This document shows positions 35,628 to 60,463 of a stretch of DNA of 64,000 bases, piece after piece. The position numbers and the translations under genes were made by a program. The stretch spans positions 288,001 to 352,000 of the forward strand of contig CAWDPO010000017.1 in NCBI GenBank assembly GCA_963804165.1, read 5' to 3'. The notes beneath the pieces were generated by a model. The model did no database searches, was not told the DNA's origin, and saw nothing but the letters and a program-made list of their open reading frames with translations. Within the stretch, counting starts at the first letter, position 1; each line of letters starts with the position of its first letter. This DNA is from an uncultured delta proteobacterium. GTDB taxonomy: Bacteria; Desulfobacterota; Binatia; UBA9968.

Positions 35628-35655
35628 TTACTAGTTCGTCTGCAGCGGTACGCTG

Positions 35656-36687: not shown

Positions 36688-36713
36688 AGGCTCTCCTTGT
36701 GAGAATACTCGAG

Positions 36714-38981: not shown

Positions 38982-39067
38982 AGTGTTTCTCCTTCCCGCC
39001 GGAATTTGGGCCGAAGCATATCCCTCAAGGCTGCTTGTGCGCAACCTTGAGGGGTGCCGACTGGTTG

Positions 39068-40102
39068 CTATTTTCCGCTCAACAATTTCTCCATACGCTG
39101 CACGACGTCCGGGGTTGACGCCATGACTTCTTTCGACAACGCCTCGATCTCCGCGCCGCTCGCCGGATCCATTTCGAGCCGGCGCTTTTCGGCGGTTGCC
39201 AAAAGCGCAGGATCGCTGACTGACTTGTCGAAGGCGTCGCGCAAAATCTTCATGCGGTCCGCAGGCACGCCTGGAGGGGTGACCAGAGGACGACCAAATT
39301 CGCCGGCAGACAAAACGACTTTCGCTAGGCTCCTTCCGGCGGCGCTGGTTTTGTATTTGTCCATCAACTCATAAATCGTCGGCGCGTCCTTGAGGCGCGC
39401 GTCGCGCTTGGCGCCGCTCTGCATCAGCGTGTTGACGAAACCGCGCTTGCGCCACGAGATGAAGGGTTCGCGGGCAAAATAAGCAGTGATCGTAAAGGCG
39501 CGGCAAACTACCTCGCCGCGCTCGACGGCGAGGTCGACGTCCTGGCCGGATTGATAACCTAAAACGATATCGAACTTCGTGCCGAGAGTTTCTTCCATGA
39601 GCTTCGGCAGATAGTAGCCGGTCGAAGTGATGCCGTTGGAGCCGCATTTCGGCGCTGCCGACGCATTCTTAATGTCGTCCATCGACTTATAAGGTGCATC
39701 CGAGCGCATGTACAAAAGATGATTCGACGTCACCGGGTTGCCGACCCAACCGAATTTCGGCCAATCGAACTTAACCTCGGGTTTTTTCGTGAGCTGCTCG
39801 AAATAGAGCGCCGGGTAAATCGCGCCGATCGTCAGGCCATCCGGCTTGGCGACAGTGTAAACTTGATTGGCCGCGATCATCGACGCGGCGCCGGGCACAT
39901 TCTGGATGATGATGTTCGGATTTCCGGGTATGTACTTCGGCATGAACTCGGCGAGCATGCGGGGATACAGGTCGTAAGCGTCGCCGGCCTTGGTGCCGAC
40001 GATAATCGTAATCGTTTTTCCTTGATAGAACGGGGTCTGGGCGTCGACATGACTGATCCCAAACAACGTCGTTAATAATAGGGCAACGAGCAAACGTAGC
40101 AT
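39068..40102 (-). CDS. tctC: TctC/Bug-family substrate-binding protein (array gene 5, ordinary signal peptide)
   Basis: Bug motifs. Confidence 0.9.
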   Translation of the reverse strand: MLRLLVALLLTTLFGISHVDAQTPFYQGKTITIIVGTKAGDAYDLYPRMLAEFMPKYIPGNPNIIIQNVPGAASMIAANQVYTVAKPDGLTIGAIYPALYFEQLTKKPEVKFDWPKFGWVGNPVTSNHLLYMRSDAPYKSMDDIKNASAAPKCGSNGITSTGYYLPKLMEETLGTKFDIVLGYQSGQDVDLAVERGEVVCRAFTITAYFAREPFISWRKRGFVNTLMQSGAKRDARLKDAPTIYELMDKYKTSAAGRSLAKVVLSAGEFGRPLVTPPGVPADRMKILRDAFDKSVSDPALLATAEKRRLEMDPASGAEIEALSKEVMASTPDVVQRMEKLLSGK

Positions 40103-40168
40103 TTAGTTCCTAACCTCCTCGGATAATTTTTTCCGCACGAACCTTACCATTTAAAAAGCTACTTTCAA

Positions 40169-41203
40169 CTAATTGCTGAGGATTTTTTTAACCCGGGCCA
40201 GGACATCCGGGGGCTGTTGCAAAATCTGCTGAGCAAGCTTTTCCAAACTCGCGCCGCTGGTCGGATCGACGTCCATTTTCTGTTTTTGCGTCTCGGCGAG
40301 CAGCTCAGGATCTTTCATGGCCTGATCGAACGCCTGACGCAGCATATTGACCCGGTCAGCCGGAATACCCGGCGTGCCAATGATCGGCCGTCCAAAGGAC
40401 TCGGCGGCGAGAATGACCTGGGCAACGCGGCGGCTGCTTTCCGGCACTTTTTCTTTCTCGAAGATCTCCGCGATCGTCGGCACGTCCGGGATTCTTTCGT
40501 CGCGTTTGGCACCGGTATAGAGGAGAACACGCACGAAGTTCTTCTTTTGCCAACTCAAGAACGGCTCGCGTCCAAAGTACGGCGACGCGGTCATGCCTCT
40601 GCACATGACTTCACCTTTTTCGACGGCGATGTCGATCTCGGATCCGCCCGGATAGCCGAGAACGGTGTTGATTTTCAAAGGCGGCAACGTGTCTTCAAGC
40701 ATGCGCGCGAGGATGAAATCGGTGCTCACGGTGCCGGTGGAGCCGCATTTGGGCGGCTCTTTGGCATTTTTGATATCGGCGATGGATTTGTACGGGCTAT
40801 CGGCGCGCATATAAAGAATCATCGGCTCACTCACCGGAGAGCCGATCCAGGCAAACTTGCGCAGGTCGAATTTCACTTCCGCACGGCCGACGATCTGGTC
40901 GAGATAAAGTCCACTGCTGGGAAAACCGATGGTCAGGCCGTCGGGCTTGGCCACGCTGTAGACGTAATTGGCCGCAACCACCGAGCCCGCGCCCGGCATA
41001 TTCTGCACGATGAAAGTGGGGTTACCCGGAATATATTTCGGCATGTAGCGCGCGAGCAGGCGCGCCCAGCGATCGTAAAAACCGCCGGTGGTAAAACCGA
41101 CGACCACTCGGATCTGCTTCTCTTGATAAAATGGCGTGGCTTGGGCGTGAAGCTGCGAAACCCAGGCAAAGACTAGACTTAGCGCTAAAATTGCAACTGT
41201 CAT
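40169..41203 (-). CDS. tctC: TctC/Bug-family substrate-binding protein (array gene 4, ordinary signal peptide)
   Basis: GGFYDRWAR subfamily; start MTVAIL after AAGGGAG. Confidence 0.9.
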   Translation of the reverse strand: MTVAILALSLVFAWVSQLHAQATPFYQEKQIRVVVGFTTGGFYDRWARLLARYMPKYIPGNPTFIVQNMPGAGSVVAANYVYSVAKPDGLTIGFPSSGLYLDQIVGRAEVKFDLRKFAWIGSPVSEPMILYMRADSPYKSIADIKNAKEPPKCGSTGTVSTDFILARMLEDTLPPLKINTVLGYPGGSEIDIAVEKGEVMCRGMTASPYFGREPFLSWQKKNFVRVLLYTGAKRDERIPDVPTIAEIFEKEKVPESSRRVAQVILAAESFGRPIIGTPGIPADRVNMLRQAFDQAMKDPELLAETQKQKMDVDPTSGASLEKLAQQILQQPPDVLARVKKILSN

Positions 41204-41261
41204 GTGTCTCCCTTTTGTTCGCACCACCTTCGGATCGCGGTGCCGAGGATTTTGCACGTGC

Positions 41262-42350
41262 TTATTCAAGAAGTTTTTTGACGCGTTTGAGGACGGCCGG
41301 GGGTTGATTCATAACTCTTTTCGCCAATGCCTGCAGCTGTTCGCCGGTGACCAGCTCGATGTCCATGCGCGCTTTCTTGGCCTCGGCCAAAAGCTCGAGA
41401 TTATTCATAGCTTTGACGTAGGCCTCGCGGAGTATATTCACCCGGTCCGCCGGCGTGCCCGGCGCCACGATCATGGGCCGGCCGAAGTCGCCGCCGCGCA
41501 AAATGACATCAGCGACCCGACGGCTCTCATCCGCAGTATTTTCCTTATCAAAAATCTCGTAAATCGTCGGCACCTCTCCGACGCGCGCATCGCGCTTCTC
41601 CGAGGTTTGCAGGATATGTTGATCGAAACCTTTCTTGTGCCAGGTATCGAAAGGCTCGCGGCCGAAGTGGGGGGCAATGGTCATGCCGCGGCACTGAACT
41701 TCGCCCTTTTCCACGGCGATATCGATTTCACTGCCGCCGGCGTATCCCAAGATCGTGTTGATCTTGATGCCCAGCGTGTCCTCGAGCACTCGCGCGATCA
41801 AGTAGTCGGCGCCGGCCGTACCGGTGGCGCCGCACTTGGGCGGCTCGGGCAGTTTCCTCATGTCCTGGACGGATTTGAACGGAGCATCGGCGCGCGCGTA
41901 GAGGATGATATCGCTTTTCTCCGGCGAGCCGATGAAGTAGCCCTTGGTGATATCGAAGCGGACTTCTTTGCGCCCGGCGATTTGATCGAGATAGACGCCG
42001 TAGTTGGGCATGACGAGGGTAAGTCCGTCGGGTTTGGCGACGCCGAAAACATGGTTCATCGCGATCATCGATCCCGCGCCCGCCATGTTCTGGACGATGA
42101 AGTTAGGATTTCCCGGAATGTAAAGAGGCATAAAGCGGCCGAGCAGGCGCGCCCAGCGATCATAAAAGCCGCCCGGAGTGAGACCGACGATGATGCGGAG
42201 GGTCTTGCCTTGGTAAAAATTCGCCTGCGCGAATGTTTGTTCAACGTTGAAAGGGTTCAAGAGTTCAAGGACAGAGAAGACTAAGACTCCGAACACCTTG
42301 AACATTTGAACTTTTGAATCTTTGAATCGATTTTTCGAGAAATTGTTCAT
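41262..42350 (-). CDS. tctC: TctC/Bug-family substrate-binding protein (array gene 3, palindromic leader)
   Basis: GGFYDRWAR subfamily; GAGGT RBS. Confidence 0.9.
   Translation of the reverse strand: MNNFSKNRFKDSKVQMFKVFGVLVFSVLELLNPFNVEQTFAQANFYQGKTLRIIVGLTPGGFYDRWARLLGRFMPLYIPGNPNFIVQNMAGAGSMIAMNHVFGVAKPDGLTLVMPNYGVYLDQIAGRKEVRFDITKGYFIGSPEKSDIILYARADAPFKSVQDMRKLPEPPKCGATGTAGADYLIARVLEDTLGIKINTILGYAGGSEIDIAVEKGEVQCRGMTIAPHFGREPFDTWHKKGFDQHILQTSEKRDARVGEVPTIYEIFDKENTADESRRVADVILRGGDFGRPMIVAPGTPADRVNILREAYVKAMNNLELLAEAKKARMDIELVTGEQLQALAKRVMNQPPAVLKRVKKLLE
42239..42327. repeat. 89-bp GTTCAA/TTGAAC palindromic leader element (three units with single mismatches)
   Basis: gttcaa/gttgaa/gttcaa/gttcaa, 29 nt, ttgaac/ttgaac/ttgaat/ttgaat. 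Confidence 0.88.
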
Positions 42351-42358
42351 AACTTACC

Positions 42359-43450
42359 TCACTCCACCAAGACTTTTTTCACCCGCTCGACGACATCGCG
42401 CGGCTGATTCATCAGCTCTTTCATTAACCCTTGGAGTTCTTCGCCCGGGGTATGTTCCATGTCCATTTGACCCTTTTTTGCTTCTTCAATCAGGCCCGGG
42501 TCGCGCATCGCCTTGGCGTAGGCATCGCGCAACAACTTGACTCGATCCGGTGGGTTTCCGGGTCCGGCGACCATCGGCCGGCCAAATTCCCCGCTCGCCA
42601 TAATAATCCGCGCCACGCCGCGCATCACTTCGGGAGATTTGTATTGATCCATCAGCTCGAACAGCGTCGGCGCATCGCCCATGCGCGGATCACGCTTGGG
42701 TCCGCCTTGAAGAATATGGCGGTCGAAGCCTTTCTTGTGCCAACTGTCGAACGGCTCCCGGCCAAAATGCGGCGGGATGTCCATGCCGCGGCAAATGATC
42801 TCGCCGCGCTCGACGGCGACATCGATTTCAGAGCCGCCTTGATATCCGCTCACGGTGTTGAGTTTCGCCTTGAAAGCCTCGTCCATGATTTTGGCGAGCA
42901 AGTAACCGGTGCTCGCGGTGCCCGTCGAGCCGCACTTCGGCGGTTCTTTCGCTTGAATAATATCGCTGACGTTCTTGAACGGACTATCGGCGCGAAAATA
43001 AAGCATGGTCGGCGCTTTTTCCTGGGTGCCGATAAATTCAAATTTGCGCATGTCGAACTTGACTTCCCTGCGCCCGACGATTTGATCTAAATAGAGACTG
43101 TTGATCGGCACGAGCAGCGTCAGCCCATCTGCCTTAGCCAGATTGTAGACGTAGTTGGCGGCGATCACCGAGCTGGCGCCGGGCATATTTTGCACGACGA
43201 AATTGGGATTGCCGGGAATGTGTTTCGGCATGTAGCGCGACAGCAAGCGCGCCCAACGGTCGTAAAAGCCGCCGGGGGTGAAGCCGACGATGATGCGAAC
43301 GGTCTTGCCTTGGTAAAAATTCGCTTGCGCGAATGTTTGTTCAACGTTCAAAGGGTTCAAGAGTTCAAGGACAGAGAAAATTAGGACTCCGACAACCTTG
43401 AACGTTTGAACTTTTGAACCTTTGAACCGATTTTTCGAGAGATTGTTCAT
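42359..43450 (-). CDS. tctC: TctC/Bug-family substrate-binding protein (array gene 2, palindromic leader)
   Basis: GGFYDRWAR subfamily; GAGGT RBS. Confidence 0.9.
   Translation of the reverse strand: MNNLSKNRFKGSKVQTFKVVGVLIFSVLELLNPLNVEQTFAQANFYQGKTVRIIVGFTPGGFYDRWARLLSRYMPKHIPGNPNFVVQNMPGASSVIAANYVYNLAKADGLTLLVPINSLYLDQIVGRREVKFDMRKFEFIGTQEKAPTMLYFRADSPFKNVSDIIQAKEPPKCGSTGTASTGYLLAKIMDEAFKAKLNTVSGYQGGSEIDVAVERGEIICRGMDIPPHFGREPFDSWHKKGFDRHILQGGPKRDPRMGDAPTLFELMDQYKSPEVMRGVARIIMASGEFGRPMVAGPGNPPDRVKLLRDAYAKAMRDPGLIEEAKKGQMDMEHTPGEELQGLMKELMNQPRDVVERVKKVLVE
43339..43427. repeat. 89-bp GTTCAA/TTGAAC palindromic leader element
   Basis: 4x gttcaa, 29 nt, 4x ttgaac. Confidence 0.92.
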
Positions 43451-49601: not shown

Positions 49602-50594
49602 AAGTTCGCTAGTTGTGGCGACCGTCATTGCATTCTTGCGTGAGCTGTTTGATCGGCTTCAAACGCCTTCGCCCAAGCCAAACCTCTCCGCGAGATTAAG
49701 GTTGGCTACCCATTGGGCGGTTCGTCCAGTTATTTCTGGGTTGCGTACCGCTCGGGTTCATTCGAAAAGCACGGCTTGAAGCTCGAACCGATTTACATCA
49801 GGGGCGGGCTTATGGGAATCCAAGCGGCTCTTTCCGGCGACCTGCCTTTGCAGTTGCAAGGGGCGTCTACGGTGGTGGCCGCGTGGGCGCAGGGCGCCAA
49901 GGAGTTTCAATTTATCGGCGCAGTCGGCAATCGGCTGGACTACATTCTGGCGGCGCATCCTTCGATCAAGAGACCCGAGGATCTCAAGGGGAAGCGAATC
50001 GGAGTCAGCCAACTCGGTTCGAGCACGGATTTCATCGCCCGGGTGGCCGTTCGACGGCTTGGGCTCAATCCCGAGAAGGACGTGCAGATCGTCGGCATTG
50101 GCGGCCAGGGAGACCGTTGGACCGCACTCACGGCCGGACAGGTTCAAGCCAGCGTGTTTCAATCTCCGTTCACCTTAAAGGCGCGCAAAGCGGGTTACCC
50201 TACGTTTATCGATTTTTCCAAGGAGGATTTCGAGTACACGGTTGCTGGACCGGTGACTATGCGCTCCTTCATCCGGACCGACAGAGACACTGTCATGAAC
50301 TTCATGCGCGGGTTGGCCGACGGCATGGATTTCTATCGCGACGAGAAAAATAAAGACCGCGTGCTGAAATTTCTAGGTGAATATTACCGTTCCAACAACA
50401 CCGAAGAATTGGATGAAACCCGCCGGACTTACACTCAGGTGACACCGGGATTGCCCTTGATTTCAGTCAAAGCACTGGAGAACGTGATCGCCAACGATAA
50501 GAATCTCAGCGGGATGAAATTGAATGCCAGTGAGTTGTTGGACTTATCTTTCCTTGAACAGTTGGCGCAGGAAAGAAAGGCGAAGGGACGCTAA
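49534..50594 (+). CDS. ABC transporter substrate-binding protein (NMT1/SsuA type); frameshift(s) in signal peptide
   Basis: AGGAG RBS and ATG 49534; mature frame NAFAQAKPLREIKVGYP..., FEKHGL and LKGKRIGVSQLGSSTD. Confidence 0.82.
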
Positions 50595-50605
50595 TAAATT
50601 AACTC

Positions 50606-50783
50606 GGTCAAACCGTTCAAAAAGTTCAAGCCGTTCAAATCGTTCACCCCTCACCTTCCTTTCGACGCGGCCGGACCTTTCTCTCCCCCGCGACGCGGGG
50701 GAGATTCAAAGAGAGGGCTTGAACCCTTCGCAGCTCTCAGGGCAGGCTCCGCGAAGCGATTGAACAGCTTGAACGTCTGGAAC
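50606..50783. repeat. Free GTTCAA/TTGAAC element (9-bp period) with a nested CCCTC...GAGGG REP
   Basis: gttcaa at 50615/50624/50633, gttcac 50642; ttgaac at 50719/50760/50769, tggaac 50778; internal tctccccc-gcgacgc-gggggaga hairpin. Confidence 0.8.
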
Positions 50784-50810
50784 TTAGGGGCCAAGAAAGA
50801 GGTAGGAGCA

Positions 50811-51605
50811 ATGGATTACCAGACAATTCTGTTCGACGTGCGTGATCAGATCGCTTTTGTCACCTTCAACCGGCCGGAGTCGATGAACGCCGTGAACCGG
50901 CAGATGGCAAAGGATCTGGTCGAAGCGTGCCGGCAGATCGAAGACGACAGCGCGATTCGCATCGCGATTTTTACCGGCGCAGGCGAAAAAGCTTTTTCCG
51001 CCGGCATGGATCTGAAAGAGCGATCGGAAACGGCGTCCTCGCCGATCGAGCGGCGCGCGCAGAAACTGTCGGCGACGATCCATACCCAGAGTCGCGCTGT
51101 GGCGGCGATCACCAAACCGACGATCGCCTCGATCCGCGGTTACTGTGTCGGCGGCGGGTTGGAATTCGCCCTGGCATGCGACATGCGCGTCGCCGCCGAA
51201 GACGCCAAGTTGGGACTTGCCGAGGTAAAGCGCGGCTTGATTCCCGGAGCCGGGGGCACGCAAAGATTGTCGCGCACGGTGGGCGTAGCGAAAGCGTTGG
51301 AGATTTGCCTCACCGGCGACAACGTCAGCGGCAGCGAAGCGCTGCGTTTGGGATTGGCTAACATCGTCGTGCCGGCCAACGACGTCATGAAAGCAGCGGA
51401 GGATTTGGCCAACCGCATTCTCAAGGGCGCGCCGATGTCGGTGCTGTTCATTAAAGAAGCGATCAAAAAAGGTATCGAGCTGTCGCTGGACGAGGGCTTT
51501 CGCCTTGAGTCCGATCTATCGGCGTTGATTGGCACCACGGAAGACAGCAAGGAAGGACCGCGCGCCTTCGCGGAAAAACGCGCGCCGGTGTGGAAGGGGA
51601 AGTAA
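50811..51605 (+). CDS. Enoyl-CoA hydratase/isomerase family protein
   Basis: NRPESMNA, AFSAGMDL, GGGLE.ALACD and EVKRGLIPGAGGTQRL motifs. Confidence 0.92.
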   Translation: MDYQTILFDVRDQIAFVTFNRPESMNAVNRQMAKDLVEACRQIEDDSAIRIAIFTGAGEKAFSAGMDLKERSETASSPIERRAQKLSATIHTQSRAVAAITKPTIASIRGYCVGGGLEFALACDMRVAAEDAKLGLAEVKRGLIPGAGGTQRLSRTVGVAKALEICLTGDNVSGSEALRLGLANIVVPANDVMKAAEDLANRILKGAPMSVLFIKEAIKKGIELSLDEGFRLESDLSALIGTTEDSKEGPRAFAEKRAPVWKGK

Positions 51606-51607
51606 GA

Positions 51608-51716
51608 ATTTTAGATTGCCGATTTTGGATTTTGGATTGGGGAGATGAAAATCCAGCAATAAGACACTCGCGTATACTCTCCGACAATCCAAAATCGAAA
51701 ATCTAAAATCCCAAAT
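51608..51716. repeat. Heptamer-period inverted repeat (GATTTTG)n ... (CAAAATC)n, intergenic
   Basis: attttagattgccgattttggattttggattg ... caatccaaaatcgaaaatctaaaatcccaaat. Confidence 0.8.
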
Positions 51717-51726
51717 GGAGTACGCA

Positions 51727-52545
51727 ATGGCGGACGAAAAAGTTTTATACGAAGTCAAAGATAAGATTGCTTGGATCACACTGAATCGGCCGGAATCGTT
51801 GAACGCGGTCAATCGGGACATGGTGAAATCGATTGTCGGTTACTGCCGCGAGGCGAATGAGGATCGCAGCGTTCAGGTCGTAATTTTTAAAGCCAACGGC
51901 GAGCGAGCGTTTTCGGTCGGCGGTGATATTAAGGATCGCGTGCGCGCAAGCGAGGCGGCCGCGACGGTGGAACCGGAGTCGCCGCTGGTGCTGCGCCAAG
52001 CGCGTTCCTCGGCGATTCCCGGCACGCCGGCGCCGGCGATCGCGGCGATTGACAAAATCACCATGGCGTTGCTGCACGGCTACACGGTGGGCACGGGGTT
52101 GTTGATGAGTCTCGCCTGCGATATTCGCATCGCCGCGGAAGGAGCGCGGCTCGGCGTCAGCGAAGTGCGTCTGGGTTTCATGGCGGGCTCCGGCGGCACC
52201 CAGCGCATGGCGCGGCTGATCGGCATTCCGAAAGCGTTGGAAATCTGTCTTTCCGGAGAGCTTTATGACTCCGCGGAATGTCACCGCATCGGCTTGGTGA
52301 ATCAAGTGGTGCCCTACGATCAGCTGATTCCCGCCGGTGAAAAGATGGCTGCGTCGTTCTTGAAGGGCGCGCCGCTGGCGCTGCGCTATATAAAGGAAGC
52401 GATTTACAAAGGCAGCGACATGACGCTGGAGCAGGGACTACGTTATGAGTCCGATCTGCAGAGCATGGTGATGCAGACCGAGGACGCCAAGGAAGGGCCG
52501 AAGGCGTTTGTCGAGAAGCGGCCGGCGGCGTGGAAGGGGAAATAA
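51727..52545 (+). CDS. Enoyl-CoA hydratase/isomerase family protein
   Basis: NRPESLNA, AFSVGGDI, SLACDIRIA and GGTQR motifs; the first catalytic Glu position reads GTGLL. Confidence 0.9.
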   Translation: MADEKVLYEVKDKIAWITLNRPESLNAVNRDMVKSIVGYCREANEDRSVQVVIFKANGERAFSVGGDIKDRVRASEAAATVEPESPLVLRQARSSAIPGTPAPAIAAIDKITMALLHGYTVGTGLLMSLACDIRIAAEGARLGVSEVRLGFMAGSGGTQRMARLIGIPKALEICLSGELYDSAECHRIGLVNQVVPYDQLIPAGEKMAASFLKGAPLALRYIKEAIYKGSDMTLEQGLRYESDLQSMVMQTEDAKEGPKAFVEKRPAAWKGK

Positions 52546-52549
52546 GATA

Positions 52550-52653
52550 GTTCAAGGTTCAAGGGTTCAAGGTTCAAAGTCAGAGTGCCACGGTTGACAT
52601 TGCCATCGGATCGGGTTTCCGACCTTGAACTTTGAACGCTTGAACCTTTGAAC
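52550..52653. repeat. Free-standing GTTCAA/TTGAAC element (4+4 units, 47-nt spacer)
   Basis: gttcaa at 52550/52557/52565/52572; ttgaac at 52625/52632/52640/52648. Confidence 0.9.
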
Positions 52654-52717
52654 ATTCTGCGAATGCGCAAAGGGTTTGGTTTGCGGCCGTAAACCCAATA
52701 GTCAGGTAGAAGTAACC

Positions 52718-54256
52718 ATGGGCACAAGTATCCCAATGCTGATGGGCGACGGATTGCGTCGCAATGCGTGGAAGTATCCGCTCAAAGTTGCCGCGAAAGA
52801 CCGGTCCGGGCAAATCACCTACGGCGAGCTCAACGCGCGCGTGAATCGGCTGGCACACGGGCTGCTTTCGCTCGGGGTGCGCAAGGGCGACGCGGTGGCG
52901 TTGTCGGTGGGGAATCGGATCGAGCATTTGGAAATCATTTTCGCCATCGCCAAGATCGGCGCACTCGCGATTCCTCTCGATGTTAAATGGAAGGCGCTGG
53001 AGCTCGCATCGGTGGTTTCGGCGTTCGAGCCGCGATTCATCATTCTTCAGGAAAACTGCGCCGATGAATTCGCCAAGGCAAAAGAACTCAAGGATCTGGG
53101 TTTTCTCAAACCGGTGTCGCTGTCGTCCGACCGAAGTTATGGCGGGCTTCTCGTCGGCCAGAGTCCGGAGGAGCCCGACGTCAATGTGAGCGAAGACGAT
53201 CCGTTTGCCGTTATGCTCACGTCAGGAACCACAGGATTTCCCAAAGGCTGTCTGACGACACAGCGGACATTTGTTTTTCACTGTATCAATAACGCGATCG
53301 AAAAGGGCTTGGGCGCGCATGATACCGCGATTCTCTCGTCGCCGATCTACTTCAACGCCGGCCGCTCGTTCACGATCGGGATTATCTACTTCGGCGGCAC
53401 GATGATCTTGCACGAACGTTTCGACGCCGAGGAGGTTTTACGGACCGTCGAGCGCGAAAAAGTAACCTACATCGGCGCGGTGCCGACGATGTGCGAGCGC
53501 ATGCTACATGTCTTGGAATCCAAGAAATACGACACGAGCACACTGCGCTGTCTCGCGATTACCGGCGGCAAGGTTCATCCGGCGGTGCTCGAGCGCTTGA
53601 AGAAAGAAATTACGCCGAACATTTACCGCACCTACGCTTCGACGGATTCGGGGCAGATGGCGATTTCGAAGCCCGGCGATATGGACGCAAAGCCGAATTC
53701 CGCGGGTCGGCCGGTCTGGTGTGTAGATCTGCGGATTGTCGACGACGCCAACCATTCCATGAAAGTCGGTGAAGTCGGCGAGATCATCTGTCAGAGTCCG
53801 CTCGCAACCCACGGCTATTACAAGAACGCCGAAGCAACCAACGCTTCGTTCCGGGACGGCTGGTTTTACACAGGCGACCTCGGCTATTTCGATGAAGACG
53901 GTTACCTCTTCGTCGCCGGCCGCAAGAAAGACATGGTAAAGAGCGGCGGCATCAGCGTTTACCCGTTGGAGATCGAAAGTGTCATCTACAGCCACCCGGC
54001 GATCCTGGAGGCCGCCGTCATCGGTGTACCCGATCCGCAGTGGGGCGAGGCTGTGAAAGCGGTAGTGGTTATCAAACCGGACGCGAATCTTGAAGCGAAA
54101 GACCTGCTCGGCTTCTGCAAGGAGCGGCTGTCGGCGTACAAAGTGCCCAAGTCGGTTGAGTTTCGTTCCTCGCTACCGCACACGGAAGTCGGTAAGGTCA
54201 ATAAAGTTAAATTGAAGGAAATGATTCTAGCAGGAAGCGAAAGCTTGAAAAGCTGA
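52718..54256 (+). CDS. AMP-dependent acyl-CoA synthetase
   Basis: TSGTTGFPKG, GWFYTGDLG, GRKKDMVKSGG and YKVPK motifs. Confidence 0.93.
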   Translation: MGTSIPMLMGDGLRRNAWKYPLKVAAKDRSGQITYGELNARVNRLAHGLLSLGVRKGDAVALSVGNRIEHLEIIFAIAKIGALAIPLDVKWKALELASVVSAFEPRFIILQENCADEFAKAKELKDLGFLKPVSLSSDRSYGGLLVGQSPEEPDVNVSEDDPFAVMLTSGTTGFPKGCLTTQRTFVFHCINNAIEKGLGAHDTAILSSPIYFNAGRSFTIGIIYFGGTMILHERFDAEEVLRTVEREKVTYIGAVPTMCERMLHVLESKKYDTSTLRCLAITGGKVHPAVLERLKKEITPNIYRTYASTDSGQMAISKPGDMDAKPNSAGRPVWCVDLRIVDDANHSMKVGEVGEIICQSPLATHGYYKNAEATNASFRDGWFYTGDLGYFDEDGYLFVAGRKKDMVKSGGISVYPLEIESVIYSHPAILEAAVIGVPDPQWGEAVKAVVVIKPDANLEAKDLLGFCKERLSAYKVPKSVEFRSSLPHTEVGKVNKVKLKEMILAGSESLKS

Positions 54257-54463
54257 TCGCGAGAGCTTGGGGAGATTTTTCGTCGGGCGAGACTGTGTGA
54301 AAACACGTTCATGGTTGGATTGGGCTCACTGCGAACGGTGTGGTTTAACGGAAAAATGAGTATTTATCCGTTCGCCCGGAGCAGCAAAAGGGTGCGAAGC
54401 GTTGAACGGACCATTGGCGGCTGTAGGAATATTAGATCATCGCAACTGAAAGGAGACCTGATC

Positions 54464-55546
54464 ATGAAGTTTCTAGGCGGAGCTTGGTTATTCCTTTTTT
54501 CCGGATTGGTTTTGCTTGTTGCTCCTGCTTTCGCGGCGGAAAAGGCATTTTACCAAGGAAAGACTATAACTTTCCTGATTAACTTTTCCGCCGGCGGCCC
54601 GACTGATATCGAAGGCAGAATCGTGGCGCGCCATCTCGCCCGGCATATTCCCGGAAATCCGACGATCGTGGTGCAAAATATGTCCGGTGCGGGCGGAGTC
54701 ACGGGCATTAATTTTCTCGGCGAGAAGGCTAAGCAAGACGCTCTCACGCTGGGCTATTTTACCGGGCCCTACAATCACCACATGATGAAAAGTTCGACGT
54801 TGAGGATCGATCTGATGAAGGTGCCGTTCATCGCTGCGGTGGGGAGCGTGACGGTCTGCTACATACGGTCCGATGTTCCGCCGGGGATCAAGAAACCCAC
54901 GGACATCGCCAAAGCGGAGCGTTTCAGAGCCGGCGGCTTGTCATTCGACAGCAACAAGGACCTGCGTTTCCGGCTTGCCTTCGACATCCTTGGACTCAAG
55001 TACGATTACGTGACCGGTTACAACAGCAGCAACGACGCGCGGCTGGCTGTGCAGCGCAACGAGATTCAATACCATGATGAAAACATTCCGGGATACCGCG
55101 GCGTCGTCGAGCCGCAACTGGTGAAGACCGGCATTGTCACGCCGCTCTACTATCACGATGTCGTCAAACCCGATGGGACCATGGGAAAGAGCCCGGACTA
55201 CCCCGAGCTCAATTCATTTACCGAGGTGTACATGCAAATTCACGGCAACGCGCCGACCGGGATCAAATACGAAGTGCTCAAAGCGGCGAATATGGCCAGC
55301 CAGAATCTCAGCCGCGTGGCTTTGTTGCCGCCGAATTCTCCCAAAGAAGCGGTCGTTGCAGTGCGGCAGGCTTTTGCTTCGCTTTCCAAGGACGAAGAAT
55401 TCCTCGCGGAAGGTAAGAAGGTCATGCGCTTCCAGCCGCGCTTTGAGGTCGGCGAAGATGGCGAGAGACTCCGGGAAAGGGTGCTGAAGGCGCCCCCGGA
55501 GGTTGTCGATTTCGTGCGGCAATTTATCGAGCAGGCGAGGAAATAA
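54464..55546 (+). CDS. tctC: TctC/Bug-family substrate-binding protein (divergent, outside the array)
   Basis: FYQGK, FSAGGPTD and QNMSGAGG motifs; AAGGAG RBS. Confidence 0.85.
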   Translation: MKFLGGAWLFLFSGLVLLVAPAFAAEKAFYQGKTITFLINFSAGGPTDIEGRIVARHLARHIPGNPTIVVQNMSGAGGVTGINFLGEKAKQDALTLGYFTGPYNHHMMKSSTLRIDLMKVPFIAAVGSVTVCYIRSDVPPGIKKPTDIAKAERFRAGGLSFDSNKDLRFRLAFDILGLKYDYVTGYNSSNDARLAVQRNEIQYHDENIPGYRGVVEPQLVKTGIVTPLYYHDVVKPDGTMGKSPDYPELNSFTEVYMQIHGNAPTGIKYEVLKAANMASQNLSRVALLPPNSPKEAVVAVRQAFASLSKDEEFLAEGKKVMRFQPRFEVGEDGERLRERVLKAPPEVVDFVRQFIEQARK

Positions 55547-55595
55547 TTGGCTTGCAGGAATTCATCAAGCATGAACGAAAGGTGATACATCACGG

Positions 55596-56465
55596 ATGAA
55601 TCTAGAACCGAGACGACGATACTTTGATCATGATGGATTGCGATTGCATTATTGGGAGTGGGGCGATGCCAGTGCGGAGACGTACATTTTCGTTCACGGC
55701 GTGCGCGACCAGGGACGGAGCTGGGATCATTTTCTCGACGCATTGCTCAAGCGCGGCGTGCCGATCCAGCACGCCGTCGCCATCGACCTTCGAGGCCACG
55801 GCGACAGCGACTGGCCGGGCACCAGCCGCGGTTATCAGCACGAGGATTTTCTCTCCGACCTGGCCGGATTGCTCAAACATCTCGACAAGGAACCGATAAC
55901 TCTCATCGGTCACTCGCTCGGCGGCAGCATGTGTCTGCTCTACGCCGCGGCGTTTCCAGAAAAAGTGCAGCGCATGGTGCTGCTCGAATCGCTCGGCCCG
56001 TTCGCGCGCGCCGACGACGAGGTGCCGAACATTATCGCTGAGAGATTGAAAGGTCGCGACTACGTCGAGATTCCCTTTCCCCATGAAACGCTGGAGTCCG
56101 CTGCCAAGTCGCTGCAAAAAACCTTTCCACTGATTCCCGACGCCGCGGCGCTGCACATGGCGTGCCACGGCACGAGCTTCAAAGGCGGACGATACCGCTG
56201 GAAGCACGATCCGATCCTGCGCTACCGCACGACGACCGCGATGTCGGAAGGACAGATCGAAGCGTTTATCCGACGGTTGAAATGTCCGATCCTGTTTGTC
56301 TACGGCACTGAGAGCGATTTCATGAAATCCGTGCGCGGCCACCGCGCGCAACTTTTTCCCAACGCCAAGATCGTTCCAGTCGAAGGCGCCGGCCATCACA
56401 TTCCGCATGAGAAGCCGGAGGAATTGGCGGAGATCGTCGTGCCGTTCTTAATCAGCGGGGAATAG
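55596..56465 (+). CDS. Alpha/beta hydrolase
   Basis: HG, DLRGHGDS, GHSLGG nucleophile elbow and AGHH motifs. Confidence 0.92.
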   Translation: MNLEPRRRYFDHDGLRLHYWEWGDASAETYIFVHGVRDQGRSWDHFLDALLKRGVPIQHAVAIDLRGHGDSDWPGTSRGYQHEDFLSDLAGLLKHLDKEPITLIGHSLGGSMCLLYAAAFPEKVQRMVLLESLGPFARADDEVPNIIAERLKGRDYVEIPFPHETLESAAKSLQKTFPLIPDAAALHMACHGTSFKGGRYRWKHDPILRYRTTTAMSEGQIEAFIRRLKCPILFVYGTESDFMKSVRGHRAQLFPNAKIVPVEGAGHHIPHEKPEELAEIVVPFLISGE

Positions 56466-56468
56466 CTC

Positions 56469-56586
56469 GTTCCAGACGTTCCAATCGTTCCAGCGGTTCC
56501 AGTCGTCTCGGAAGAATACATTGCTTATGTTATCTTCACGTCTTGTCCACGAGTGGAACGTTTGGAACCATTGGAACGACTGGAAC
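56469..56586. repeat. Free GTTCCA/TGGAAC variant element (4+4 units, 9-bp period, 52-nt spacer)
   Basis: gttcca at 56469/56478/56487/56496; tggaac at 56554/56563/56572/56581. Confidence 0.88.
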
Positions 56587-56609
56587 CACCAGTAACGAGC
56601 GAGGTGACT

Positions 56610-57062
56610 ATGTATCTGTCAGCGCAGAAAATTGCCGCAATGGAAGGCGTGCGTAGAGTCCACAATCTGAATCCGGCGGCGATTCGGATAGACAAGTCCC
56701 TCGGTGACGAAGTTGGCTTAACAAACATCGGTATTCATCTAATCACGATCGCGCCGGGGGATAAATCGACGGAATTTCATTCGCATAAGTACGAAGAAGA
56801 AGCGATTTACGTGTTGTCGGGTCATGGGACCGAAGTCATGGGCGATACGAGCCAAAAGATCGGGCCGGGAGATTTCATCGGCTTTCCCGCGGGCGGCGTC
56901 GCGCATGAGACGATCAACGACGGTTCAGAGCCGTTGGTTTGTCTCGTGATCGGACAGCGACTGGCACAGGATGTCGTCGACTATCCGCGCAAGGGCAAGC
57001 GGCTCTACCGCAACAGCGGGCAGCGGGATTTGGTTGACGTCGCCAATGTGGCAAAGCGCTAA
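56610..57062 (+). CDS. Cupin domain protein
   Basis: H.H..EEE..YVLSG, GDFIGFPAG..AH...N and DVVDYP motifs; GAGGTG RBS. Confidence 0.9.
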   Translation: MYLSAQKIAAMEGVRRVHNLNPAAIRIDKSLGDEVGLTNIGIHLITIAPGDKSTEFHSHKYEEEAIYVLSGHGTEVMGDTSQKIGPGDFIGFPAGGVAHETINDGSEPLVCLVIGQRLAQDVVDYPRKGKRLYRNSGQRDLVDVANVAKR

Positions 57063-57099
57063 GTGTGCTTGCTCACGTTTCCCAAGAGAGGCTTAAGCC

Positions 57100-58065
57100 G
57101 TGCTGATCAACTGCGTCGCGTACCGTGACGGAAAAAAACTGGCTGATATTCCGGTCAGCCAGATTCATCTGTTCGTTAACGAGCCCGGCTGCTTCGTCTG
57201 GGTAGCCATTAAGGATCCTGATCCCGGGGAACTCGAAGCGATGCAGAAGGAATTCGGTCTGCACGACCTCGCCGTCGAGGACGCGCAGCACGGCCATCAG
57301 CGGCCGAAAATCGACGAGTACGGCCAGTCGCTTTTCATCGTCCTGCATATGATTGAAAGCAGCGGCGAGGAATTGAACGTCGGCGAAGTCTGCATCTTTG
57401 TCGACAGCAATTACGTTCTCTCGGTCCGGCACCGATCGCAACAAGGATTTGTCGACGTGCGCAAGCGATGTGAACAGGAGCCTGAACTGTTGCGTCACGG
57501 CTCGGCTTATGTGCTGTACGCGTTGATGGACGCGGTGGTGGACCGCTATTTTCCCGTGCTCGATGCCATCGAGACGGAGTTGGAACAGGTCGAGGATCGC
57601 ATTTTTGCCAAGCAAACCGAACGGGCGAGCATCGAAGCGCTCTATTGCATCAAGCAAAAGCTCATGACGCTGAAGCATGCGACCGAGCCGCTGCTCGAAG
57701 CGATGGGCAGGCTGCACGGTGGGCGGGTGCCGCAGCTCTGCGCCGGTCTGCAGGATTACTTTCGGGATGTTTCGGATCATCTGGTCCGATTGAGTCAGTC
57801 CATCGAGAGCCTGCGCGAAATGGTGACGACGGCGGTTTCGGCCAGCTTGTCGTTGATTACTTTGCAAGAAAATGAAGTGACCAAGCGTCTCGCGGCGTAT
57901 GCCGCGCTGGTGGCCGTGCCGACTTTGATCGCCGGCATCTACGGCATGAATTTGAGCACATGCCGGAAATCCAGTGGCAGCATGGCTACCCGGTATGCAC
58001 TTATCTCCATGGTCGTCATCGATCTTTTTCTCTTCTATCGCTTTCGCAAAGCGAAGTGGCTGTAA
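57100..58065 (+). CDS. corA: Magnesium/cobalt transporter CorA (compensating frameshifts after GMN)
   Basis: FGLH.LAVEDA, QRPK, DYFRDV.DH, PTLIAGIYGMN and FRKAKWL motifs. Confidence 0.9.
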   Translation: MLINCVAYRDGKKLADIPVSQIHLFVNEPGCFVWVAIKDPDPGELEAMQKEFGLHDLAVEDAQHGHQRPKIDEYGQSLFIVLHMIESSGEELNVGEVCIFVDSNYVLSVRHRSQQGFVDVRKRCEQEPELLRHGSAYVLYALMDAVVDRYFPVLDAIETELEQVEDRIFAKQTERASIEALYCIKQKLMTLKHATEPLLEAMGRLHGGRVPQLCAGLQDYFRDVSDHLVRLSQSIESLREMVTTAVSASLSLITLQENEVTKRLAAYAALVAVPTLIAGIYGMNLSTCRKSSGSMATRYALISMVVIDLFLFYRFRKAKWL

Positions 58066-58149
58066 GGTTCAGTTTCAGAGGTTCAGTATGCGATTGTGCG
58101 GCATTCCTTCGGAAAATCTCCCCTTCCTTTCTCTGACGCCGTGCCGCGA

Positions 58150-58252
58150 TGTCATCCTGAGGCCCTTCGATGTTCTCAGGATAAACTCCGCCGAAGGATC
58201 TCGGCTTTGTAAGTCGGGCATGCGAGATTCTTCGCTGACGCTCAGAATGACA
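58150..58252. repeat. REP-like element TGTCATCCTGAG...CGAAGGATCTC...GAGATTCTTCG...CTCAGAATGACA
   Basis: Nested inverted repeats; family shared with 4968, 10106, 60535 and 63151. Confidence 0.75.
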
Positions 58253-58414
58253 TCGAAGCGACTTTCTTCCCTGCGATACGATCTTATTTTCAAAAAGGGC
58301 TAGTGCCTCGCGGAGACTCTCGATCATACGCAGACATTAGTTTTTCGTCCCATTGCGTTTGATGACTCACCTCAAGTTCTGATAGGGAACACGATAGATA
58401 TGGGGAGGACGGTT

Positions 58415-59233
58415 ATGGCTGAACTGACGACGGTTCTACAAAAGATCGATGAAGCGAGCGGGGTCGCTTGGTTGACGTTCAACCGGCCGGAGAAAAAAAA
58501 CGCCATGAGCCAGAAGTTCATGGCGGAATTGATCGCTGCGTTGAAAGAATTGGCCGAGAACGACAAGATCAAGTGCGTCGTGACGACCGGCTCGGGCGAC
58601 TCGTATTCCTCGGGGCTCGATCTTTATGATCTGCGCGAGTCGTGGAAGCGCAAACGAAATTGGGAACACGCCGGCACGACGTACGAGATCGTCAGGCTGC
58701 TGCGCAACATGCCGCAGGTTACGGTGGCGGCCGTGCGCGGCTGGTGTCTCGGCGGCGGTTTGGCGCTGATCAACGGTCACGATCTGTGCATCGCGGCGGA
58801 GTCGGCAAAGTTCGGCATGCCGGAGGTGATCCGCGGCAGTTACGGCGCGGTGGCGACTTCGACGCTGTTCCACAGCGGTATTCCGATCAAGAAGGCCTTT
58901 TATATTCAACTGACGGGGCGCAATCTCACCGCAGCGCAGGCCGAGCGGATCGGACTCGTCTCCGAGGTCGTGCCGGACGATCAGTTGGTGGAGAACGTCG
59001 AACAGCTGGCCAAAGAACTGGGCAGCCGCAACGCCGTGACCTTGGAGAGCGCGAAGATCGCCGCCTACATGCAGAAGGATATGGATTTTCAGATGGCGCT
59101 CAAGACGGATGACCTGGTGTCGCACCGCATGCGTTACTACACCAATCCGCTGAACGACGTGGAAGGTTATCTCCATTCGCAAAAGGGCGGCGGCACGACT
59201 GGGTATGTCAAGCCGGAGGATCGGAAGAAATAG
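58415..59233 (+). CDS. Enoyl-CoA hydratase-family protein, hydroxycinnamoyl-CoA hydratase-lyase-like
   Basis: NRPEKKNAMS, GLDL, GWCLGGG and FGMPE motifs; GGAGG RBS. Confidence 0.8.
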   Translation: MAELTTVLQKIDEASGVAWLTFNRPEKKNAMSQKFMAELIAALKELAENDKIKCVVTTGSGDSYSSGLDLYDLRESWKRKRNWEHAGTTYEIVRLLRNMPQVTVAAVRGWCLGGGLALINGHDLCIAAESAKFGMPEVIRGSYGAVATSTLFHSGIPIKKAFYIQLTGRNLTAAQAERIGLVSEVVPDDQLVENVEQLAKELGSRNAVTLESAKIAAYMQKDMDFQMALKTDDLVSHRMRYYTNPLNDVEGYLHSQKGGGTTGYVKPEDRKK

Positions 59234-59237
59234 ATTT

Positions 59238-59266
59238 GTTCAAGGGTTCAAGGTTCAAAAGTTCAA
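59238..59266. repeat. Solo 4x GTTCAA arm
   Basis: gttcaa at 59238/59246/59253/59261, 4 nt after the stop codon. Confidence 0.8.
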
Positions 59267-59332
59267 GGGTTGTCGGAAGCAACGGTGGCTTACCATTGAG
59301 TCAGCCCTGGGCTCTCGACATTGGAGGATTGT

Positions 59333-60463
59333 ATGTCTTTGCACACGCCTTTATGCGATCTGCTCGGCATTCAGGTGCCGATCATTCAAGCCGGCATGGG
59401 CTGGGACAAAGAAGGTTTGACGACCCCGCCGGCGTTGGTCGCCGCGGTGTCGAATGCCGGTGGCTTGGGTTGCATCGGCGGCAGCTCGATACGACCCGAA
59501 GTCATCCGCGAACGTATCCGCGCGGTTCGGCAGCTGACGGACAAGCCCTTCGGCGTCGATATCACGTTGCCGAAAATGGAAGATGTGAGAATTCCCGACC
59601 CAGACGAAGTGCACAAAGAGATCCAGGAAAAATTTCCCAAGCACGCCAAGTTCAACGATGAGTTGATTCCTAAACTCGGCTTAACGCCGCAGCCGCCGGA
59701 CCGAAAGAGCTGGGTCAAGACGCCGGCAGCAACACGCGAGCAGCTCAGAGTGATTCTCGAAGAGAACGTGCCGATCTTAATCATCGGTCTGGGCGATACC
59801 GCCGAAGTCGTTCCCCTAGCGCATGAGCGCGGCATCAAAGTCATGGCGCTTGCCGGCGCGGTCAAGCATGCGCTCAGTCATGCGCGCAAAGGCGCCGATG
59901 TAATTATCGCCCAGGGCTATGAGGCGGGCGGCCACACCGGAACCATCGGCAACTTTCCCTTGATTCCGCAGATCGTCGACGCTGTGAGACCGAAGCCCGT
60001 GGTCGCCGCCGGTGGCATTTCCGATGGCCGTGGCGTGGCGGCGGCACTGGCCTTAGGTGCCGTCGGTGTCTGGTGCGGTACGACATTCCTGGTGACGCGA
60101 GAAGGCGGTATCAATCCGATTTATAAAAAGCAGATTCTCAATGGCAGCTCGGAAGACTTTGTTCGTACGGCCTACACCAGTGGCCATTTCGCGCGCCACT
60201 ATCGCAGCGATGTCATCAAGGCCTGGATGAGCTCAGGGCTTGAGGCGATGCCGACGCCCTACCAGGGTAACGCGATGGACGAAGTGCGGCGCGCGGCCGA
60301 AGCGGCGGATCGTGTCGATCTTTTGCACGTCCCTGGCGGACAGGTTGCTGGAATGTTGAGCGAAGAGCGGAACAACGTCCCCGCCAGGGAGATCGTCGAA
60401 CGCATGGTTACAGAGGCGGCGCAGATCTTGAACGATATGCGCAGCCGATACGTGGGAGCGTAA
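59333..60463 (+). CDS. Nitronate monooxygenase / FabK-like flavoprotein
   Basis: PIIQAGM, AAVSNAGGLG, QGYEAGGH and VAAGGI.DGRG motifs. Confidence 0.9.
   Translation: MSLHTPLCDLLGIQVPIIQAGMGWDKEGLTTPPALVAAVSNAGGLGCIGGSSIRPEVIRERIRAVRQLTDKPFGVDITLPKMEDVRIPDPDEVHKEIQEKFPKHAKFNDELIPKLGLTPQPPDRKSWVKTPAATREQLRVILEENVPILIIGLGDTAEVVPLAHERGIKVMALAGAVKHALSHARKGADVIIAQGYEAGGHTGTIGNFPLIPQIVDAVRPKPVVAAGGISDGRGVAAALALGAVGVWCGTTFLVTREGGINPIYKKQILNGSSEDFVRTAYTSGHFARHYRSDVIKAWMSSGLEAMPTPYQGNAMDEVRRAAEAADRVDLLHVPGGQVAGMLSEERNNVPAREIVERMVTEAAQILNDMRSRYVGA

Follow-up and report, generated by a model that had tools for sequence, protein, structure and literature searches.

What is the short tandem repeat that recurs just behind stop codons along this stretch of DNA, and what keeps it there? 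The window analysed here is the whole of a 64,000-nucleotide (nt) stretch, G000:C17:288001-352000, of a Candidatus Binatia genome (G000; 7.5 Mb in 46 contigs, 55.8% G+C). A sequence-only reading of the window had noticed hairpins and single arms built from tandem GTTCMA hexamers, some free-standing behind stop codons and some in frame at the start of tctC-like genes, and had proposed a common origin for both. We conclude with high confidence that the free-standing copies form a repeat family, in which a GTTCMA hexamer plus 1-3 free bases is repeated four times, sometimes three. With the same high confidence, this module is placed on the coding strand 0-12 nt past a stop codon, either alone or followed by an inverted module with which it could form a long, interrupted hairpin.

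Gene positions were taken from a crude caller based on open reading frames (ORFs) and made for this analysis (6,780 genes covering 78% of the genome), and an arm was defined as at least 3 GTTCMA units. G000 carries 337 such arms, nearly all intergenic by these gene calls, with 3 (108), 4 (216), 5 (11) or 6 (2) units each. Units recur at periods of 7 nt (330), 8 nt (189) and 9 nt (393), and the three periods are mixed within single arms. Adjacent arms are ordered forward-then-reverse in 46 pairs and reverse-then-forward in 4; the 46 pairs enclose loops of about 14-130 nt, and 245 arms are without a strict partner. Larger clusters consist of modules of 3-5 units strung together by linkers.

The sequence-only reading held that the elements follow stop codons, and this is borne out genome-wide. 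Under a null of uniform placement inside the same intergenic region (2000 simulations), 35.7 sense arms or hairpins would be expected to start within 12 nt past the upstream stop, with a simulation maximum of 51; the observed number is 81 of 180. Antisense arms lie this close to a stop in 3 of 101 cases, against 9.9 expected. Placement at random with respect to stops, named beforehand as the outcome that would speak against the idea, is therefore not found: the bias is present throughout the genome, and only in the sense orientation. The excess holds in all intergenic length classes, including regions longer than 200 nt (16 of 76, 2.5 expected), and stop-to-arm distances form a plateau at roughly 3-12 nt, with few at 0-2. 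It is the solo arms that are anchored to stops. For stop-proximal arms the next gene is co-directional or convergent in a ratio of 60:21, matching the background proportions (4885:1852), which places the anchor at the end of the upstream gene and not at the downstream start. Divergent intergenic regions are under-used (23 of 247 intergenic elements). No common motif or conserved sequence was found in the 82 gaps between stop and module.

The stop codons of these 82 module-followed genes are enriched in TAA (39 TAA, 25 TAG and 18 TGA, against a background of 30%, 27% and 43%; p 2e-4), and the same genes have higher coding scores. Both features may reflect highly expressed genes or false gene calls, and we set them aside as evidence. 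We also considered gene cassettes flanked by modules. Consecutive arms 600-3000 nt apart are forward-reverse in 2 cases, reverse-forward in 20, forward-forward in 25 and reverse-reverse in 17, counts that match the prediction from stop-anchoring alone, and the cassette idea was dropped.

Within the window, the scan pattern (GTTCMA-N1-4, three times) has 42 matches, against 0 in each of 100 shuffles. The following copies lie outside the tctC-like genes.

50606-50783, plus strand: composite element of a 9-nt-period GTTCAA arm, a nested GC-rich hairpin and an inverted arm
50606-50647, plus strand: arm of the composite, with one degenerate, three perfect (the first at 50615) and one decayed unit
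50683-50703, plus strand: nested GC-rich hairpin CTCCCCCGCGACGCGGGGGAG, inside the 50606-50783 composite
50760-50783, plus strand: inverted arm of the composite
51606-51714, plus strand: hairpin of another unit family, ATTTTGG...CCAAAAT, with the same architecture
52550-52653, plus strand: hairpin of 4+4 GTTCAA/TTGAAC units with a 47-nt loop
52550-52577, plus strand: 5' module of that hairpin, four GTTCAA units with spacers of 1, 2 and 1 nt
52578-52624, plus strand: its 47-nt loop, with inner motif AGTCAGAG...TTTCCGACC
52625-52653, plus strand: its 3' inverted module, four TTGAAC units
56469-56586, plus strand: GTTCCA-subfamily hairpin, 4+4 GTTCCA/TGGAAC units of 9-nt period with a 52-nt loop
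56469-56501 and 56554-56586, plus strand: the two arms of the 56469 hairpin
58066-58086, plus strand: weak, degenerate solo arm of GGTTCAG/GTTTCAG units
59238-59266, plus strand: solo module of four GTTCAA units, without an inverted partner
12366-12397, plus strand: doubtful copy, two adjacent GTTCAA units and one 17 nt upstream

Direct reading places the three GTTCMA hairpins (52550-52653, 56469-56586, 50606-50783) and the solo arm at 59238 where the sequence-only reading had put them. Its two lesser copies fare unevenly: the one near 58067 (here 58066) is degenerate, as had been said, and the supposed solo arm at 12382 is weak and lies about 50 nt past the stop of the nearest ORF of at least 100 amino acids (11867-12331). 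The 52550 module begins 4 nt past the TAA (52543-52545) of an enoyl-CoA hydratase-like gene (51715-52545), and its loop keeps its length in the orthologs L010, L018 and L021, with sequence just 57% identical. The 56469 hairpin starts 3 nt past a TAG (56463-56465) and has orthologous hairpins at L009, L011 and L037. The first, degenerate unit of the 50606 composite is 11 nt past a TAA (50592-50594), the solo module at 59238 is 4 nt past a TAG (59231-59233), and the weak arm at 58066 directly follows the TAA (58063-58065) of a corA-like gene. The ATTTTGG hairpin lies between two enoyl-CoA hydratase-like genes, directly after a TAA (51603-51605). Its 3' arm is directly adjoined by the Shine-Dalgarno-like GGAG of the next gene.

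The composite belongs to a multi-copy subfamily with a common GC-rich core. The CTCCCCCGCGACGCGGGGGAG hairpin with CCTCC-rich flanks, nested between 9-nt-period GTTCAA arms, also occurs in G000 at C3:89657, C10:20847, C11:83802 and C16:60296, and the CTCCCCCGCGACGCGGGGGAG-bearing composite is found in the relatives L008, L012, L023 and L032, as a larger repeat of about 150 nt. Two other arrangements of GTTCMA arms recur in G000. Intergenic stretches of 100-300 nt hold up to 21 units in one orientation, as 3-5-unit modules of mixed subfamilies with recurring linkers such as a small GCCGTTAAACAGG..CGGC hairpin. A conserved near-palindrome, CGTTTCGGGAATTCTCGAAACG-like and with TTGACA in some copies, comes after a solo arm at 23 loci; it may be a common promoter or operator of paralogous genes. 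Their places are as follows.

C12:9345-9637 and 10875-11243: long one-orientation stretches
C34:122540-122697: long one-orientation stretch
C46:85410-85543: long one-orientation stretch
C2:252-263 kb: loci of the CGTTTCGGGAATTCTCGAAACG-like near-palindrome
C34:114-132 kb: loci of the CGTTTCGGGAATTCTCGAAACG-like near-palindrome
C12:23-32 kb: loci of the CGTTTCGGGAATTCTCGAAACG-like near-palindrome

All eight units of the 56469 hairpin carry C in place of A, which the sequence-only reading took for a compensatory change and hence for a sign that pairing matters. This interpretation does not stand. GTTCCA is a subfamily, of which 4 hairpins consist purely and to which many solo arms belong, and since the A-to-C change marks that subfamily it provides no evidence that pairing matters. 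All 13 variant units in mixed hairpins are uncompensated; in most mixed hairpins a lone GTTCCA sits in one arm, as its second or third unit, and the orthologs of the 56469 hairpin at L009 and L037 contain uncompensated GTTCAA units. Across the 46 hairpins, complementarity between facing spacers (48 of 157 positions) is no higher than in random spacer pairs (0.32-0.38), and a sense-strand bias of G·U over A·C in the spacers (12 vs 5) is not significant.

The site behind gene 51715-52545 allows conservation to be measured across species. In its 12 GTTCAA-type sequences (the window and 11 relatives; L028 left out), about 82 of the 96 expected units are perfect, against an identity of 41-64% at four-fold sites in the flanking gene. 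Where both arms are complete at 4+4 units (four loci), loops are all of 47 nt and 57% identical, with spacers 63% identical; hexamer identity in these four was set by selection of the subset and is uninformative. On this comparative evidence the constraint lies on the hexamers, with spacers and loops drifting at the neutral rate, and pairing is not the conserved feature.

The in-frame copies give a second measure of the same kind. They occupy the following positions.

28878-43427, minus strand: span of the in-frame leaders, at the 5' ends of eight tandem tctC-like genes
28878-28966, 29994-30082, 31103-31191 and 32195-32283, minus strand: leader copies
33359-33447, 34445-34533, 35528-35616 and 43339-43427, minus strand: leader copies
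Just upstream of the mature coding start near 42221, minus strand: ninth, decayed leader copy

In each leader the first module encodes a Lys-rich n-region (FKSSKVQAFKV), the 29-nt loop encodes the hydrophobic core of a signal peptide, and the second module encodes ELLNPLNLE, followed by an AxA cleavage-type motif and the mature protein. Free-standing copies resemble these leaders beyond the hexamer, as had been predicted: those of 7/8-nt period also have an inner GTCRGA...TCCGAC adjoining the arms. The leader-like peptides said to be encoded antisense to the 52550 hairpin do exist, in two different frames and not in a single one. Capture of an element in frame is likewise upheld, since 63 of the 72 binding-protein paralogs in the genome have ordinary signal peptides, and the nine that bear the element (7 full, 2 partial) all belong to one tandem cluster in the window. 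A single capture followed by tandem duplication best explains this distribution and the fixed 29-nt spacer, which was kept by common descent and coding constraint. The tctC-like family is greatly expanded, with 72 paralogs with aligned N-termini in G000; elsewhere in the genus, genomes have 2-64 matches.

Among the eight tctC-like paralogs, 62 of 64 leader hexamers are intact at an amino-acid identity of 47-72%. In the seven parsed leaders, spacers are 60% and loops 58% identical, with four-fold sites at 47%. Orthologous leaders keep 8 of 8 hexamers in three genomes (G018, G012, G004) and 0-1 of 8 in four others (G008, G013, G016, G006), in which the signal peptide is still kept. Leader hexamer integrity follows the genome-wide GTTCAA count (Spearman 0.90, n=13, uncorrected for kinship). 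Constraint on the hexamers depends on lineage.

Orthologous sites differ in which unit family they hold. The site behind gene 51715-52545 was compared in 35 sequences, the window and 34 loci.

13 of 35 sequences: GTTCAA-type hairpins
10 of 35 sequences: ATTTTGG-type
5 of 35 sequences: GGTTTCG-type
3 of 35 sequences: other single types (GAGGC, GAGACA, GTCTRG)
4 of 35 sequences: no element

Two further orthologous sites show the same mixture. A tree of the flanking gene requires 17 or more changes of family label (18-19 in the shuffles printed), and sisters often differ. L018 and L039 have flanks 92-100% identical per 60-nt window on both sides, with unrelated elements of near-equal length between them, and the exchange runs from the last three codons of the upstream gene to 2 nt before the next ATG. 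This pattern reflects either frequent replacement of elements or old alternative alleles shuffled by recombination. Mosaic or nested copies occur at L037, L039 and L013, and unit indels separate close relatives (L033 vs L040). Many orthologs have just 0-20 nt between the end of the 3' arm and the next start, leaving no room for a Shine-Dalgarno sequence. At L036, the site orthologous to 52545 has 3 nt from stop to start, against a hairpin of about 100 nt in other species; the downstream reading frame of that record seems shifted.

Further unit families, namely TGGAGT, GGATTT and AGGCR, and in relatives GGTTTCG and GAGGC, follow the same rules and are interchangeable at one intergenic site, a conclusion in which we have high confidence. 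TRF reports 572 intergenic arrays of period 6-10, of which 203 start within 15 nt of a stop. GGAGT forms 85 arms, never of more than 4 units, with 13 forward-reverse and 0 reverse-forward pairs, and lies within 12 nt of a stop in 18 of 43 sense and 1 of 39 antisense arms; the corresponding counts are 6 of 9 and 1 of 11 for GATTTY, and 6 of 10 sense arms for AGGCR. As a rule, GTTCAA(G), GTTCCA, TGGAGT and GGATTT units contain no GGG run.

The families are widespread in the genus and patchy beyond it. Tallies of triplets, which take in the unpublished genome G005, find GTTCAA in 18 of 18 genus genomes with 7-293 hits each (392 in G000), GGAGT in 18 of 18 and GATTTY in 17 of 18. Families vary independently, with 7 GTTCAA and 104 GGAGT hits in G007 and 293 and 18 in G004. 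Outside the family, GTTCAA triplets are found singly in 2 of 12 genomes from the order's other families. At phylum level, 35 of 200 other genomes and 24 of 144 genera, counting that of G000, carry the 7-8-nt-period pattern. Viral contigs carry 44 arrays in 34 of 117 loci (contig GC 0.25-0.67), with 13 forward-reverse and 0 reverse-forward pairs. One viral contig of 49% G+C, far from the 56% of G000 (L155), has three near-identical copies of a series of stop, ATAAAACC, four GTTCAA units, TTGAAC-like units, Shine-Dalgarno sequence and ATG.

We tentatively favour, at somewhat less than even confidence, the reading that the modules are cis-sites read unit by unit by a putative lineage-specific factor just behind the terminating ribosome. 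Three links in the data lead to it. Hexamers are kept where pairing is not, and only where the family is abundant, which points to cis-sites read by a trans-acting factor. The flexible spacing, with periods of 7, 8 and 9 nt in single arms, suits a reader of single strands better than cooperative binding to duplex DNA. A stop codon is marked by translation alone, and the module distances correspond to the reach of a ribosome, which argues for mRNA behind a terminating ribosome. On this model a putative family-specific factor would read the hexamers on single-stranded nucleic acid, most probably on mRNA at the point of its release by the terminating ribosome, with transcription through the modules assumed from their position. 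What becomes of the upstream message or ribosome would depend on the module, by way of stalling, 3'-end protection or processing, much as is reported for REP elements of E. coli close behind stops. By pairing with the first module, an inverted one would mask it or compete with it. The tctC leaders would be one element that came to be read in frame as a signal peptide and was then multiplied by tandem gene duplication.

Several observations weigh against this reading. All stop-distance figures depend on crude ORF-based gene calls, and where intergenic regions are compact, a bias towards deletion could account for part of the closeness to stops. Kinship is left uncorrected in the link between abundance and hexamer integrity. 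If sense RNA pairs, G·U should outnumber A·C, and it does so only weakly; a single-strand reader alone leaves the frequent inverted second module unexplained. Transcription is assumed from position; small shares of the stretch are present in three soil DNA runs, and no RNA run is listed for it. The reader itself is hypothetical, and several unrelated hexamer families would call for several factors or one unusual one. Further facts suit mobile DNA better: elements are replaced whole between 92-100% identical flanks, the family label is almost without phylogenetic signal (17 changes vs 18-19), and copies range from 7 to 392 within the genus, are patchy in the phylum and occur in viruses. A stronger version, in which the modules are interchangeable tags at the ribosome exit, each family with its own lineage-specific four-unit reader and tag and reader rising and decaying together, seems to us rather doubtful.

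The alternative that survives best is that the modules are non-autonomous mobile DNA without a host role, comparable to REPINs or miniature inverted-repeat transposable elements (MITEs). A transposase encoded elsewhere would recognise the inverted modules as ends and insert them by preference just behind stops or within older copies, with solo arms as halves left by decay; we hold this to be possible, if on the unlikely side. It would account for the discrete, dispersed families, 7-392 copies strong in one genus and varying independently, for their patchiness (35 of 200 other genomes of the phylum) and viral copies, and for the clean replacement between L018 and L039 and the mosaic or nested L037, L039 and L013. 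The lone GTTCCA at position 2 or 3 of most mixed hairpins suggests descent from master copies, one subfamily has a conserved GC-rich core, doublets stand beside singlets as in REPINs, and copies lie inside genes (the tctC leaders, and a Y1-transposase-like pseudogene at C2:249416-249449). Hexamers also decay where the family is rare, as REPINs reportedly do without their transposase. Against mobility, loops are unique in 196 of 284 copies while hexamers stay perfect, and decay in place would not leave perfect hexamers beside neutrally drifted loops and spacers. Neither a target-site duplication nor a conserved sequence was seen between stop and first unit in the gaps compared, and the copies inspected for MITE-type direct repeats showed none.

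A link to Y1 transposases, of the kind associated with REP sequences (RAYT), is unsupported by flanks, motif counts, orthologs or a presence/absence survey. The 18 Y1-transposase matches in G000 have their own low-copy flanking motifs and not these modules, as is the case for all 13 intact Y1_Tnp genes examined; one Y1 gene adjoins ten TTGAAC units, and its orthologs do not have them. Five of 18 module-bearing genus genomes are without a Y1_Tnp match at E<=1e-8 at a completeness of 60-93% (G017, with 165 GTTCAA hits, G013, G016, G001 and G010), and the outgroups G023 and G019 have 29 and 4 Y1_Tnp matches and 0 and 1 GTTCAA hits. Copies flanking a small gene, which the sequence-only reading suggested as candidate autonomous elements, did not turn up: a search of G000 for forward arm, gene and reverse arm gave six long-range pairs, none bracketing a transposase alone. 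The Y1 genes are a family of their own, with at least 13 diverged paralogs of about 315 amino acids in G000 that combine an IS200-like Y1 transposase domain (Y1_Tnp) with a DnaA-like helix-turn-helix. An inverted repeat of the GGGTCAGRC type flanks every paralog, each paralog has short tandem repeats of its own in front, and one is present in three copies, 95-98% identical. The four-unit GTTCAA arm at C2:249416-249449 lies in a Y1-like pseudogene missing about 190 nt relative to the copy at C2:241998-242555, which has decayed unit-like sequence at the same place. The paralogs include the following (loci L054-L063, with others).

C1:180008-180955: Y1 paralog
C34:158439-159386: Y1 paralog
C6:99647-100597: Y1 paralog
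C46:405838-406809: Y1 paralog

Double-stranded DNA offers another possible substrate, with the modules serving as binding arrays for a nucleoid-associated protein or global regulator that, for example, blocks polymerase or organises the chromosome at gene ends. Conserved hexamers with free spacers, a module size fixed at four, lineage-dependent conservation, and paired opposite-strand sites at variable distance, as reported in Geobacter (PMC2700814), would all suit such arrays. Periods of 7, 8 and 9 bp within arms, however, rotate neighbouring sites round the helix and disfavour cooperative binding; divergent regions, which contain the promoters, see little use (23 of 247); and a DNA site cannot sense a stop codon, yet strand bias and the 0-12 nt anchoring are strict. 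We consider binding to duplex DNA quite unlikely.

That the modules serve only as structural RNA hairpins, whether to stabilise 3' ends, as RNase III sites, as unconventional terminators or for translational coupling, with solo arms as decayed remnants, has in our view a slim chance. The predicted folds are very stable (52546-52660, -53.8 kcal/mol, z -7.45; 56466-56592, -58.9 kcal/mol, z -8.60; 51606-51714, -32.5 kcal/mol, z -4.75), the architecture is kept while the unit family changes at the same site, the 3' arm is often 0-20 nt before a start, and stop and start are 3 nt apart at L036. For hairpins of cyanobacterial short tandemly repeated repetitive (STRR) sequences, a part in stabilising transcripts or in coupling translation has been proposed (PMC2670836). 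Set against this, solo arms outnumber strict hairpins (245 vs 46), are the stop-anchored form and are unstructured (RNA 59234-59320, z -0.14); spacers are not complementary and unit variants are uncompensated; and co-directional and convergent contexts are used at background proportions. Intrinsic (rho-independent) termination, which needs a GC-rich stem and a U-tract, was rejected because the hairpins have no U-tract: of 15 terminator-like sites in 50000-60000, none coincides with an element, and the element stems are long and interrupted, with no T run. A sigma-70 promoter scan of 50000-60000 placed no promoter at an element, and the only results of an Rfam search were two microRNA-family matches, at 29.4 and 24.4 bits where the gathering thresholds are 100 and 95. 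To our knowledge, none of Shine-Dalgarno-like content, Rho loading, the RNase E consensus, the CsrA GGA or the likeness of GTTCAANNC to a tRNA T-loop suits all families.

Functionless slippage repeats tolerated near gene ends would fit the short tandem units, the unit indels between L033 and L040 and the over-representation of heptamer repeats in some bacteria (PMC4692102), but are very improbable and close to refuted by unit number and polarity, given the sharp ceiling at four units in place of a broad length distribution, the dispersed families with strand polarity and matched inverted partners, and spacers that differ within an arm and so exclude recent slippage.

The elements are a little-studied but already described kind of bacterial intergenic repeat in a new lineage; no report of a GTTCMA repeat family in Binatia was found in the limited library of literature searched. 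The closest described case is Geobacter metallireducens (Aklujkar et al. 2009, PMC2700814), with mostly paired opposite-strand sites of 3-5 tandem 7-9-nt units (Gmet_I, classes 1-3, class 1 having four octamers) and, besides these, 49 four-heptamer elements (Gmet_H4). Their proposed role is as binding sites of unidentified global regulators, or of IHF/HU on DNA. As here, Geobacter has several species-specific unit families among ordinary metabolic genes, and a sister species has a different element at the same spot. Tandem units of 7-9 nt in sets of 3-5, opposite-strand pairs and several lineage-specific families, which characterise the Geobacter and STRR type, are all found here. The units differ (GTTGCTYN, TCTCCGTS, MTYCTGA and GGACCGG there; GTTCMA, GGAGT and GATTTY here), insertion sequences at a fixed distance from the sites are a Geobacter feature, and the Geobacter passages mention neither stop position nor strand polarity nor unit-level conservation.

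G-rich heptamers of Xanthomonas (GGGAATC) and Nostoc (GGGGA(C/T)T) show a four-unit preference, which Rehm et al. 2015 (PMC4692102) attribute to G-quadruplex formation, and lie near stops and on the coding strand. They are likewise mostly intergenic between co-oriented genes, with some inverted pairs and, at conserved sites, extensive variation between close relatives, and the majority are transcribed. Unlike them, GTTCMA, GGAGT and GATTTY have no G-tracts of three, and their periods are 7-9 nt with free spacers; the four-unit rule here therefore cannot come from quadruplexes. Cyanobacterial STRRs, such as the hupS-hupL hairpin (PMC2670836), are tandem heptamers that form intergenic hairpins between co-transcribed genes. 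They belong to a different phylum and have different units, and the STRR passages contain neither stop-anchoring statistics nor evidence of selection at the level of units.

If the modules are plain selfish DNA, the family is an ordinary one, if well documented. From 1990, the year in which cyanobacterial STRRs were reportedly first described, several phyla have yielded similar repeats, with a few tandem 7-9-nt units (often four), frequent inverted pairs and a position near gene ends, and their function has never been settled. The genus offers an unusually clean data set, with hundreds of copies, several unit families, dozens of related genomes and orthologous sites that hold different families. 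New here is the selection on hexamers, and not on pairing, spacers or loops. A four-unit rule with stop anchoring in units unable to form G-quadruplexes weakens the main published rationale, and the link between integrity and abundance predicts a trans-acting partner that could be found by comparing gene content. In the nine-gene tandem array, an element read in frame became a working signal peptide, repeat DNA turned protein. Were the tag version true, it would give one non-quadruplex answer to the 35-year-old puzzle posed by STRRs, Geobacter pairs and the four-unit repeats of Xanthomonas and Nostoc, in the form of a post-termination code on hundreds of ordinary genes, copied by phages and exapted once here into a signal peptide.

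Two further systems are related in kind. TAACTGA repeats of marine Beggiatoaceae, cyanobacteria and Bacteroidetes (MacGregor 2015, PMC4679880) comprise 2-6 heptamers oriented to the neighbouring gene, and a reader that binds single-stranded RNA, of the S1, Csp or Csr families, has been proposed for them. They share strong orientation and a patchy spread across phyla with the present modules, and differ in lying just upstream of starts, in having inverted pairs in 1 of 170 sets and in carrying stops in all frames. Repetitive extragenic palindromic (REP) sequences of E. coli stall ribosomes when they lie within 15 nt of a stop (PMC12306157). REPs and REPINs resemble the Binatia elements as hairpin-forming inverted doublets and singlets, in hundreds of intergenic, lineage-specific copies, many of them near stops. 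REP arms, in contrast, are not made of tandem units, and the REPIN-RAYT system is defined by a cognate flanked Y1 transposase, of which none was found here.

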